In this document: positions 29,501-32,500 of the stretch, one piece after another
Numbering within the stretch: position 1 is the first letter of the stretch
Layout: each line of letters opens with the position of its first letter
Assembly: GCF_030013205.1 (NCBI RefSeq)
Contig: NZ_CP122648.1
Source: Escherichia coli
GTDB taxonomy: Bacteria > Pseudomonadota > Gammaproteobacteria > Enterobacterales > Enterobacteriaceae
DNA: 64,000 nucleotides
Direction: 5' to 3' (one strand)
Made by a program: the position numbers

Positions 29501-32500
29501 CCAGGAAGGTGTATATAAATTTAGGGTGAGTTTGGGTATGCTGTGTTCCAGCCATAATCGTTACCTCATTTAACGGTTTGGTTAGAAGCCCCGTTACTGC
29601 TCCAACAGTGCGGGGCTTCGTCGTTTCAATTGCTGAATTGCATGTATCAGCCCTTGTGGTATTCAGATTACATTTTGGTGAATACCATTTCAAGTCTTTT
29701 TTGGTATTCACTTTTGTATTACACTGCATCCCGTTATTAATCGGAGGTGCAAACATGTCCACGAGTTCTGTTAACAATAAGTCACAGCAACTGAATGCCA
29801 GATTTCCACATGAAGTAGTGAGTGGCATTGAGGCATCCCTACAGCCAGGGGAAACTAAAGCGAATTTTATAGTTACGGCTGTACGCGGTGAGATCGCCCG
29901 CCGCCAGGCAGAAGGAAGCGGAGAAAACCCCCTGGTTTCTTCGCTCGATGCGCTGGCGCAGGTGGAAAAAATCGGAGTCAAAGCTGCCGAGGAGATCGGG
30001 CAGCTCGTCACCGTCGCACGTGAAGAACTCCAGCGCCGCAAGGCCAAAGAATCAGAATAATAACTATCATCGCCGTGGTGTGAGGAACTCCGGCGCATTG
30101 CTTTACAGGTACACAGAATGACCAACAAAGAATCAACCAAAACACCATCACCAACTCGTAAGAGACGACGCAAAAATATAGCGCATGAACATGAATCAGA
30201 AAGATTCGCACCTTGTTCGTTTGCTCTTGAGAAATTCCTTAAAGAGCACAGGAAAAAGCTCTCGTTGCAAACCTTGGAACGAACCAAATCTGACTGATCA
30301 CATTGCCCACCAGCCGCAAATGTGGCATTGTTGGTGATGCGTTCAAGTATGTAGCTTTTCCACTGGCGGCTCTCTACGGTCGCCTTTGTTTTATCCAGAA
30401 CGAAATCAGACATCAGATTGATCAGCACCTGGCGACCTGACAAAATCGCATCAGTCGCGCCACCAGCAAAATTTTTTGCTTTCCGGACGGCGTGACCAAC
30501 GGCATTTTGCAGCAAAATATTCTGCATTTCTGGCGTGCTGTAGTAACGGTGATCAGCGCCTTCACTCTGTGCGACCACAACGCTATAATCTGCCTCGTAG
30601 ACAGTAAGCAATATGGCGCAGTAGGCTATTCGTTCACAAAGGCGCTCCGGCAACGGGGCGCTTTTTGTTATGTTCATCGCGTTACGCCTCACACCATTAC
30701 GCAGCCGTTCCGCGCGCTTCTTCCTCGCGTTCTTTCAGCCAGGCCAGCACCTCATCTTCATACCAGCCAACACGACGCAGACCGATTTTGAAGCCTTTCG
30801 GGAATTTTCCGGCGTTGATCATGTCCTGTAGCGAACTGTCTGCCTTGATGCGCAGAATATTTTTTACTTCCTGACGGGTAAGGATTTTTCTGATTGTTTC
30901 CACTATGTTTTACCTCGTTAATCCGGCGTATTCCGGTGATAAATACGGTAAAACAGGGCAGGGCGGGAAAAACAGTACCCACCGTTTTAAAACGGTACCC
31001 ACTGTTTTTTATCTCATTGATTACGCTTTTCTTTTTGCAAAAAAATAGCGACCGCAAAGGGCCGCTATTGTGATTACCGCTTCCACTTCTTAGGTCGTCC
31101 ACCGCATTTAAGGCTGGTGGGTCTCAGCACCTTGTCGATGCTTTCAGCCAGATTTTTCGATGCGCCACGCGAGCGCAAAAAACTGACTACCTCGTGTTTT
31201 GTGGGGGCTGTTGATTTGTCTTCCGGATCGTACGTTGACCAGAATTCACGATTTGCCATTAAGGCCAGTTGCAGGCCTTCGCCGTAGGCGGTGGTATTTT
31301 GCATAATAGAATTTTCATATACTCCGGCCTTGTCGTTAAATTTGTGGCAATTATACGATGGTTTGGCATGGTTTTCACTGGTTGCACTGGCTTTTTGTAC
31401 AGTTACACGGCACGGATACCCCTTTTACCACTGGCTATGGTCACTCCGGTAGCTGCGGCCTCTACAAATTCCCCCCACCAGCGCATAAGCACCACGCGCT
31501 TTTCCAGGTAGTTACTTCGGTTATATGCTCGCCTTACCTCGTTCGTGTCCACGTGTGCGAGTGCGGCCTCGATTACGTCCGGCTCGAATCCTTCCTCGTT
31601 CGCTGCTGTACTGAATATGGCGCGTAATCCGTGAGACACCAGCACACCAGCGTATCCCATCCGGCGCAATGCAGCGTTAGCGGTCTGGCTGCTCATTGGC
31701 AGCATTGGATTTTTAAGGCTGGGAAAAACATGTTCCCTGTGTGCGCTGATTGGCTTCATTGTTTCCAGTACAGCCATCGCCTGACCGCAAAGAGGGATCA
31801 CATGGTCACGGCGCATCTTCATGCGTCCGGCTGGAATCGTCCAGGTTTCGGCATCGAGATCTATTTCTTCCCAGCGTGCGGCGGCTGCTTCGGCTGGGCG
31901 TGCTACGGTCAGCAGTTGCCACTCAATCAGCAATCTGGTTTGCCGTTCTATGCTGGCGACCGATAAATCGTGCATTAGCTGCGGTAGCTGTTCCGGTCGG
32001 ATGGTTGGCATGTGCTTTTTGGTGGGTGAGGGGAATGCCTTGCGGACGTTCGCGGCGGTGTTGATGTCAATCAGCCCACTGTTGGCAGCAAAATCCATCA
32101 CTTCATTGATGCGTTGTAAAACGCGTTTCAGGGTTTCCAGGTTGCCGCGTGCTTTAATGGGTGTGAGTATCTCAACAAAGCGGCGAGCTGTGAGGGTATC
32201 TATTGGCGTGTTTCCGATGTACGGGAATACGTATTTTTCCAGGGATCGCCAGATATCCTTAATCGTGTTGTAAGCCAGATTCTGGCCTTTTTTCATCTCG
32301 TACCAGTCCGAGGCAACTTTTTCGAACGTGTTGCCCTTTTTCCGACTCTCTGCTTCACGTTTCCGGCGTTCGTGGTCCTGTGGGTCAACTCCCTTCGCTA
32401 TGAGTGACCTGTATTCATTCCGTCGTTCTCTGGCATCGGACAGGGAAACATCATTCAGCGATCCGAGGCTGATGATAGTCCGTTTTTTATCTGCCGGGCG

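Follow-up and report, generated by a model that had tools for sequence, protein, structure and literature searches.

Why are two small genes of a bacterial island read against all of their neighbors, and what might they do there? The question is raised by a stretch of Escherichia coli DNA of 64,000 nucleotides (assembly GCF_030013205.1, contig NZ_CP122648.1; hereafter the window), in which an island of about 12 kb, whose predicted genes correspond to those of a Gram-negative phage-inducible chromosomal island (PICI), i.e., a phage satellite, embeds a plus-strand pair formed by a gene for a 101-residue protein of the ribbon-helix-helix (RHH) type (29755-30060) and by a second open reading frame (ORF), orf59 (30118-30297). 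On the whole, we consider it probable that this region is the immunity/early-control switch of a Gram-negative PICI-type satellite located at tRNA-Pro/yejM, with the RHH protein acting as a repressor on its own operators. Among the roles that can be imagined for this protein, that of repressor of the long operon of the island, comparable to the role of Stl, appears to be the best supported by the comparative analysis.

The RHH protein and its predicted operators

A preliminary description of this DNA had recognized a 101-residue ORF with a strong Shine-Dalgarno (SD) sequence and an RHH-like segment, and this ORF is indeed present: a GGAGG (29744-29748) lies 6 nt before its ATG, and the same ORF is called "YlcI/YnfO family protein" by the Prokaryotic Genome Annotation Pipeline (PGAP) in the identical DNA of strains U90 and ETEC4079. 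Its residues 9-50 match the NCBIfam model NF041551 (YlcI_YnfO_N) with 60.3 bits (cutoff 30), and the whole protein aligns end to end with phrog_6522. Close relatives form about 130 clusters in Enterobacterales; the family is nevertheless a small one, since only 74 clusters, at 50% identity, were found among 1.84 billion proteins. Our search of the literature retrieved nothing on the function of the YlcI/YnfO family, nor on DUF3950 or on RHH proteins in connection with PICIs.

The family alignment shows the segment K-S-Q-x-x-x-x-R-x-P-H-D/E-V, then a first helix and, past a G-E-S/T turn, a second one, which is the RHH pattern, with R16, P18 and E33 invariant (the last one within the G-E-(S/T) turn between the helices). 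The structure prediction suggested in the preliminary description, run on a linked pseudo-dimer of residues 1-56, returned the beta-alpha-alpha arrangement twice, with a predicted local distance difference test score (pLDDT) of about 90; the predicted protomer with its dimer-paired strands, the turn and the polar/basic strand residues are the features of the RHH superfamily. The model of the monomer contained helices only, and its comparison with the PDB by Foldseek gave no match, since this fold depends on the dimer. When the family profile was searched against the PDB sequences, all that emerged was a weak match to the helix-hairpin-helix of Hef (E 0.028), and neither Arc nor Mnt came up at E<=10. 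Downstream of the RHH domain (residues ~10-54), residues 59-100 are predicted to fold into a single long helix (pLDDT up to 92) containing an invariant I73-G74; natural forms of 59-61 residues exist that are devoid of this C-terminal region, for which, given the weak match to Hef, a helix-hairpin-helix fold may also be considered.

The short (59-61 residues) and long (~100 residues) RHH forms coexist, with the same operator layout, among the loci that we numbered L004, L023-L029, L031-L038 and L041, the short form reading like the long one with the segment between ...EI(A/K)RRQ and ...QRRK deleted. In one E. coli island (L033, 1201-1521) two other small plus-strand ORFs, of 63 and 41 residues, take the place of the RHH gene, while the orf59-like gene and the neighboring genes are kept; these ORFs may represent a different type of repressor in the same slot.

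The RHH gene can be considered a real one because its plus frame shows amino-acid constraint. Indeed, in 18 diverged RHH genes the identity is 0.68 in the plus frame versus 0.61 in the antisense frame, the mean BLOSUM62 score of the replacements is +0.11 versus -0.99, and the variability of the plus frame increases from codon position 2 to position 1 and to position 3.

As to the sites on which such a protein might act, the sequence TGGTATTCA occurs exactly three times in the window (0.37 copies are expected by chance, and three were reached in none of 100 shuffles), which agrees with the three repeat copies reported previously: at 29657-29665 on the plus strand (O1), at 29679-29687 in inverted orientation (O2) and at 29702-29710 again on the plus strand (O3). 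These predicted operator sites lie on two divergent promoters that were proposed for the window from cross-locus conservation only. The leftward one, P_L (29665-29693, minus strand), which resembles P_LE of P4, would consist of a -35 box TTGAAA (29693-29688), a 17-nt spacer and a -10 box TAATCT (29670-29665), and we infer that it drives the Icd/Kil-like gene and the replication operon; O1 lies at its -10/+1 edge and O2 inside its spacer. O3 lies between the two promoters, and a degenerate fourth copy of the repeat (TGTATTACAC, 29715-29724) overlaps the candidate -10 box of the rightward promoter P_R (TATTAC, 29717-29722, plus strand), which would serve the RHH-orf59 transcript and whose position is occupied by TATACT or TATAAT in other loci.

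This layout is shared by other islands. When the control regions are stacked on the ATG of the RHH gene, the repeats fall at about -100, -77, -55 and -32, with a spacing of roughly two helical turns, and these positions stay fixed across more than 30 related islands, whose hosts range from E. coli to Xenorhabdus. Between the repeats, a plus-strand GTCAA(G/T), i.e., TTGAC on the minus strand, is invariant and is followed after 17 nt by TAAnnT, so that the P_L arrangement TTGAC(N)-17-TAAnnT, which forms a leftward sigma-70 promoter, recurs in about 30 loci without changing place. Across the loci, one repeat occupies the P_L spacer, another one its -10/+1 edge, and the remaining ones the rightward -10. 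A gene divergent from the operon, with sites on the operon promoter, corresponds to the layout of a PICI master repressor.

The sequence of the repeats varies together with the beta-strand of the RHH protein: QLTTVRV is found with TGAAACACAC, QSLTARI with TGTCTTACA, KKLEARV with TGTCAGCCAC and QQLNARF with TGAATACCA. In terms of counts that ignore the shared ancestry of the loci, a repeated 8-mer is common to 26 out of 38 pairs of loci with the same beta-strand versus 25 out of 458 pairs with different ones, all of these 25 having near-identical strands. Conversely, AlpA proteins sharing 97% identity are paired with different repeats, and unrelated AlpA proteins with identical ones. Thus, the repeats appear to track the RHH beta-strand rather than AlpA, which supports the repressor reading; from the whole of these comparisons, the idea that the three 9-mers behave as operator sites of the 101-residue protein can be regarded as supported.

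The second gene of the pair, orf59, was correctly described as Lys/Arg-rich, its 59-residue product containing 16 Lys+Arg and a conserved core ERFAPCxFxLEKFLKE. It is probably co-transcribed with the RHH gene, the transcript ending at an intrinsic terminator at 30365-30394 (plus strand; a 7-bp G+C stem at 30365-30384 followed by TTTGTTTTAT). This terminator, whose G.U pairs exist on the plus strand only, is kept in 9 out of 9 E. coli loci and has an energy of -12.0 versus -7.0 kcal/mol on the opposite strand. The orf59 product matches phrog_21027 (3e-15) and no family beyond it, with no match in Pfam, NCBIfam, PADLOC or the PDB and no toxin family. Its substitutions have a BLOSUM score of +0.06 overall and +0.96 in the core versus -1.07 in the antisense frame, and its indels are in frame, even if the C-terminus occurs in several frameshifted versions among natural variants. 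The 31 homologs are nearly all from E. coli, the gene is missing from the RHH module in 22 out of 22 non-Escherichia loci, and PGAP leaves it unannotated in the identical strains, homologs being annotated in other islands; we propose orf59 as an Escherichia-specific accessory.

Immediately after orf59, within an invariant block ATTGCCCACCAGCC, the minus strand carries a Chi octamer (GCTGGTGG, 30307-30314), which is kept there in every E. coli locus compared; in two Serratia loci it comes just after the short RHH gene. In all, 13 Chi octamers are present in the island of 12 kb, a density far above what we would expect for E. coli.

The RHH gene belongs to a module that begins with an alpA, ant or BRO gene (minus strand), continues on the plus strand with the RHH gene, accompanied or not by the small ORF, and returns to the minus strand with the Icd-like gene, DUF4222 and a gene for a primase or a helicase, and which always lies between the alpA/ant/BRO gene and the Icd-like gene. 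It recurs in many E. coli islands having different integrases and replication genes, and in Enterobacter, Erwinia, Serratia, Yersinia, Pantoea, Xenorhabdus and Photorhabdus; a part of the module, i.e., DNA resembling the orf59 region, is present in 1780 out of 5426 complete E. coli genomes, i.e., in about a third of them. The model PICI EcCICFT073 also harbors a 59-residue RHH protein (WP_000190587) and a 57-residue ORF (WP_000130015) between its AlpA-type and Icd-like genes. In this locus (L041; E. coli CFT073, NC_004431.1, 1379525-1381052) the short RHH gene is accompanied by repeats of the GGTGTGGCCCAC type and by an antisense open frame of 433 codons, whose 5' part resembles a BRO/ANT remnant and which may be the "ORF3" of the reporter fusions in the 2018 PICI paper.

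The antisense frame and the candidate antisense RNA

The porcine enterotoxigenic E. coli (ETEC) strain ETEC4079 is 100% identical to the window across the entire island, and its PGAP annotation places the island next to tRNA-Pro and yejM. According to this annotation, the minus-strand genes code for an integrase, a 76-residue ORF, an AlpA-type helix-turn-helix (HTH) regulator, an Icd-like "pseudogene" and a 121-residue ORF, followed by DUF4222, a RepA helicase, ProQ/FinO, PerC, NUDIX, DUF2213 and a lytic-transglycosylase protein, the "YlcI/YnfO family protein" being the sole plus-strand gene listed. The view of two plus-strand genes facing an otherwise minus-strand island is in agreement with these data. 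The same does not hold for their placement in a gene-free gap between alpA and the operon, as an insert between the two: a minus-strand frame of 500 codons (29190-30692), which we call Eta-like, crosses both ORFs, both promoters and the hairpin discussed below, so that the pair is in fact embedded antisense in the ORF connecting alpA with the operon.

The upstream partner of this frame is the alpA-type HTH gene (30697-30903, minus strand; phrog_66, 6e-9; an HTH regulator for PGAP), a member of the excisionase/activator family. The ATG of the Eta-like ORF (30677) lies 20 nt past the alpA stop, with a GAGG 9 nt upstream of it, and in many loci the ORF starts on, or right next to, the stop of the gene that precedes it (ATGA, GTGA, TAATG, or an SD 13-17 nt away). 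At its other end, the ORF runs in frame into the Icd/Kil-like gene (29190-29555, minus strand; 121 residues; NF033153, 1e-22; phrog_6196), as it usually does across the loci. This gene, whose start we corrected to 29555 and which has its own GAGG SD (29567-29564), is nested at the 3' end of the long ORF and is the first one downstream of P_L.

Over the RHH gene of 32 non-redundant loci, the Eta-like frame contains no stop in 11,098 codons, whereas 706 and 714 stops were counted in the two remaining minus frames, and it is also free of stops through the promoter region and the hairpin. An antisense stop would originate from NNT-CAN or NNY-TAN codon pairs of the RHH gene, and the codon usage of the latter bears the corresponding signature: none of the 159 codons preceding Gln or His ends in T, as compared with 25% of the other third positions; at four-fold sites, T occurs in 1 of 8 columns before CAN versus 61 of 69 elsewhere; and the ~100-residue forms contain no Tyr at all. 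A natural control is offered by an Erwinia locus (L010) without the upstream minus-strand operon, where no long open frame extends past the RHH gene. These patterns indicate that stops are selected against in the Eta-like frame, also where it crosses the RHH gene. Pfam gave no match on the 500-residue product, and since the 5' part of the ORF (30303-30677) has no codon-position bias (5, 7 and 4 differences), no functional protein domain is claimed for it; we infer that the Eta-like ORF is a "translated spacer".

Pseudogenes annotated as "Icd-like", "ash family", "BRO-N" or "hypothetical" are called by PGAP opposite the RHH gene in L004, L007, L031, L035, L039 and the window itself (29190-29627), and 29962-30597 is left unannotated in the identical strain; these scattered calls look like by-products of the stop-free antisense frame, which would explain them. 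In Xenorhabdus and Photorhabdus (L012, L014-L017), the region downstream of the RHH gene harbors a repetitive antisense ORF of 350-530 codons, rich in Ser, Leu and Asn, in which the 3' end of the RHH gene recurs in multiple copies (YCSDDA motifs), together with a conserved GAQKEKDSTANATLW motif; these may be remnants of repeated recombination at the site.

The inverted repeat in the control region (GAAGCCCCG/CGGGGCTTC), previously reported as an operator-like dyad with a 9-bp stem, is indeed there, and it extends to about 14 pairs over 29585-29619; it is not an operator, instead, its fold being restricted to the plus strand. Over a set of 20 loci, it exhibits compensatory changes at 6 pairs and many G.U pairs, which become C.A on the other strand, and its consensus energy is -23.6 kcal/mol on the plus strand versus -7.6 on the minus strand. 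Since it folds well only as plus-strand RNA and is then followed by the T run, we read it as a one-directional terminator (29585-29627) for rightward transcription.

This terminator probably closes a short transcript. In the region 29537-29627 (plus strand), which has a -10-like hexamer TATGCT (29537-29542) and spans the SD and the start codon of the Icd-like gene, the stretch of about 80 nt between the hexamer and the T run folds into two hairpins (z = -6.3), with compensatory changes at 9 of 21 pairs in 26 loci; the first hairpin (29550-29583) exposes in its loop the anti-SD sequence CCUC, opposite the SD of the Icd-like gene. The hexamer, of the form TAnnnT (TGGTATGAT or TGGTATAAT in other loci), stays at a fixed distance from the terminator hairpin, though the Icd-like start codon shifts between two classes. 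On these grounds, the stretch can be considered a candidate cis-antisense RNA against the Icd/Kil-like gene. A scan of 27000-33000 against Rfam at E<=1 found no C4, IsrK, CI-like or other relevant family, although an RNA resembling c4 of P1 or CI of P4 would have been expected upstream of the Icd-like gene.

A further, strong terminator-like hairpin (30638-30675, plus strand) consists of 12 pairs followed by TTTTTGTTATGTT, with -20.9 kcal/mol versus -13.7 on the other strand. It is located where the Eta-like ORF begins, next to alpA, and may keep plus-strand transcription from running antisense into this gene; the peptide SAPLPERLCE, encoded by its minus strand, is found again in L002, L005 and EcCICFT073.

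The proposed switch and the alternative readings

Taken together, these elements allow the proposal of a two-layer switch. In the resting state, RHH dimers would bind the TGGTATTCA-type sites, possibly joined to each other via the C-terminal helix; the occupied sites, bracketing the -10 box and filling the spacer, would shut P_L, keeping off the Icd/Kil-like gene, DUF4222, the RepA helicase and the downstream genes, and the other sites, lying on the promoter of the RHH gene itself, would ensure autoregulation, the RHH-orf59 transcript presumably ending at 30365-30394. As a second layer, the short plus-strand RNA, if produced, would damp the translation of Icd/Kil by pairing with its ribosome-binding site. 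Induction might follow the P4 pattern: helper-dependent transcription of alpA would run on into the Eta-like ORF, translationally linked to alpA, cross orf59, the RHH gene and P_L in antisense, and enter the operon from upstream of the repressed promoter. The Eta-like frame would presumably be kept open so that ribosomes shield the transcript from Rho, and the convergent transcription would lower the synthesis of the repressor, silencing the RHH gene.

Several observations weigh against this scenario. No sequence-level relation of the 101-residue protein to any characterized repressor was detected by Pfam, which returned only PSK_trans_fac (E 0.021), or by hhalign against Mnt, which gave 1% probability and an E of 0.05 over the strand only. 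The -10 boxes of the window, TAATCT for P_L and TATTAC for P_R, are weak matches, and a consensus promoter scan listed neither promoter in the window; the promoter of the antisense RNA would be a mere -10-like hexamer within a coding sequence. The window and L038 share the same beta-strand (KSQQLNARF) and yet differ in their site cores (TGAATACCA versus TGAATCGCA), and part of the covariation may reflect common descent of the loci. Lastly, the Eta-like ORF shows no amino-acid constraint where tested.

How do other readings compare with the switch? If the minus strand alone were functional, the long ORF would code for an ordinary protein of the Bro/Ash/Icd family and the plus-strand ORFs would be chance frames. 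The 500 open codons, and the Icd-like, Ash and BRO-N pseudogenes that PGAP sometimes calls across the stretch, might suggest so; but the amino-acid constraint is in the plus frame, the minus frame changing in an apparently neutral way, the RHH fold is predicted with high confidence and matched by an independent NCBIfam model, and the pair has a strong SD and its own terminator, so that we give this idea hardly any credit. Also highly improbable is a type II toxin-antitoxin (TA) module, in which the RHH protein would be an autoregulating antitoxin, orf59 a small toxin and the repeats the TA operator only. The order of the two genes (RHH first, small basic ORF second), the repeats on their own promoter and the weak Pfam match to PSK_trans_fac (E 0.021), a family of antitoxin type, fit such a layout, but orf59 matches no toxin, Pfam or PADLOC family and its C-terminus is frameshifted in natural variants; moreover, the RHH gene keeps its place, promoter and operators in the 22 loci of other genera without orf59, i.e., the two genes are not co-inherited, and a TA operator would have no need of the two sites that occupy the opposing promoter P_L.

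A gene expressed together with a maintenance repressor is often an exclusion gene, and orf59 is lineage-specific; the pair might then be an anti-phage defence or superinfection-exclusion cargo expressed in the resting state of the island. We regard this as improbable: PADLOC matched neither protein (none of the four submitted gave a match), the module lies in a regulatory zone rather than in a cargo hotspot, and the RHH part is already accounted for by its operators. In searches against phages, tblastn of the two proteins versus 50,697 phage records gave no match and blastn only short ones around the Icd-like start and the hairpin. Of the two options considered in the preliminary description, the Stl-like master repressor agrees with the predicted fold, the fixed sites and the strand covariation, and the TA or defence-type module does not. 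A last alternative, unlikely in our opinion although with something in its favor, is that the RHH protein is real without being the P_L repressor, regulating only itself or acting elsewhere (e.g., on helper-phage DNA or in packaging), and that AlpA, the integrase or a host protein reads the repeats. The YlcI/YnfO family is uncharacterized, its genes in the lambdoid prophages DLP12 and Qin lie beside the small terminase gene, and the window and L038 have one strand and two site cores; nevertheless, the repeats follow the RHH strand and not AlpA, and from genus to genus they keep constant positions with respect to both promoters. The immunity switch built on an RHH repressor is the scenario that we retain.

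According to the 2018 PICI paper (PMC6092414), the matter of a global repressor in Gram-negative elements is unclear. It is tempting to extend the scenario to these islands as a group, including EcCICFT073: they would have a dedicated RHH immunity repressor in many exchangeable specificity types, each with matching operators, backed by a cis-antisense RNA against the Kil/Icd-like gene, double-coded within a translated Eta-like ORF and forming a bistable switch based on convergent transcription. Such an extension is attractive but tentative, and in its entirety it may well prove wrong. If it were true, the ribosome-covered transcription driven by AlpA would both bypass and silence the repressor, with both strands under selection. 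In any case, a candidate repressor with mapped sites, present also in EcCICFT073 itself, makes the question of the master repressor directly testable; the natural diversity of strands and operators might represent a ready set of orthogonal repressor-operator modules and a way to predict immunity groups among satellites; and the codon signature of the stop-free antisense frame, found across genera, provides an uncommonly clear example of a bacterial gene whose two strands are both under selection.

Comparison with known systems

The immI region of phage P22 comprises the RHH repressor Mnt, which has a C-terminal helical extension, the promoter P_ant, the sar antisense RNA, the partner protein Arc and a single O_mnt. 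The region described here would share with it an RHH repressor with a C-terminal helix, divergent from the promoter that it would repress and with predicted operators overlapping the latter, and a candidate short antisense RNA over the ribosome-binding site of the downstream gene, in an operon of the icd/ant type, as in immI of P1. It differs from P22 in that its protein has no detectable sequence relation to Mnt or Arc and no Arc partner, in having four sites spaced by ~22-23 bp instead of one, in the position of the repressor gene, which is antisense inside a presumably translated ORF, and in belonging to a satellite rather than to a phage. A similar logic is found in plasmid pMV158, where CopG and the antisense RNAII control the copy number and copG is co-transcribed with repB: also in the island, a small RHH repressor and a short, terminator-ended antisense RNA might act together on a replication operon. 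However, copG is not divergent, the context is that of a plasmid, and no sequence relation to the island protein was found. The E. coli K-12 proteins YlcI (DLP12) and YnfO (Qin) share with it the same NCBIfam N-terminal domain (NF041551), but they are short lambdoid-prophage proteins in another genomic context. From its sequence, the island pair falls outside the Mnt/Arc sequence family, the type II TA systems and the known defence systems.

In the satellite P4, the translation of Eta allows upstream transcripts to read through, and vis, eta and kil have a nested arrangement (PMC10111431). The window exhibits the same nesting of Eta and Kil, with weak similarity to P4 at the Kil/Icd start, and resembles P4 in its AlpA/Vis-type gene, in the linked long Eta ORF, in the internal constitutive promoter, in the nested same-frame Kil/Icd-like gene and in the replication genes. 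In P4, however, the interval harbors neither a protein repressor nor a plus-strand gene, and the immunity factor is the CI RNA, located on the operon strand; the island, in contrast, has no Rfam C4/IsrK/CI-like RNA at E<=1, its conserved hairpin is on the opposite strand, and its internal promoter carries predicted protein operator sites. The new element with respect to P4 would thus be the gene for a protein repressor on the strand opposite to eta.

Finally, in the Staphylococcus aureus pathogenicity islands (SaPIs) and other Gram-positive PICIs, the gene for the repressor Stl (Rpr) is divergent from the excision/replication operon (PMC6092414). The RHH gene would have the same role and position, even though its product belongs to another fold family, with no homology to Stl, and even though Stl is lifted by the binding of a helper-phage protein, whereas the induction proposed here would rely on AlpA-driven read-through. 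The closest analogs of the switch would be immI of P22, with Mnt and sar, and the immunity region of P4, and its role that of Stl in the Gram-positive PICIs.

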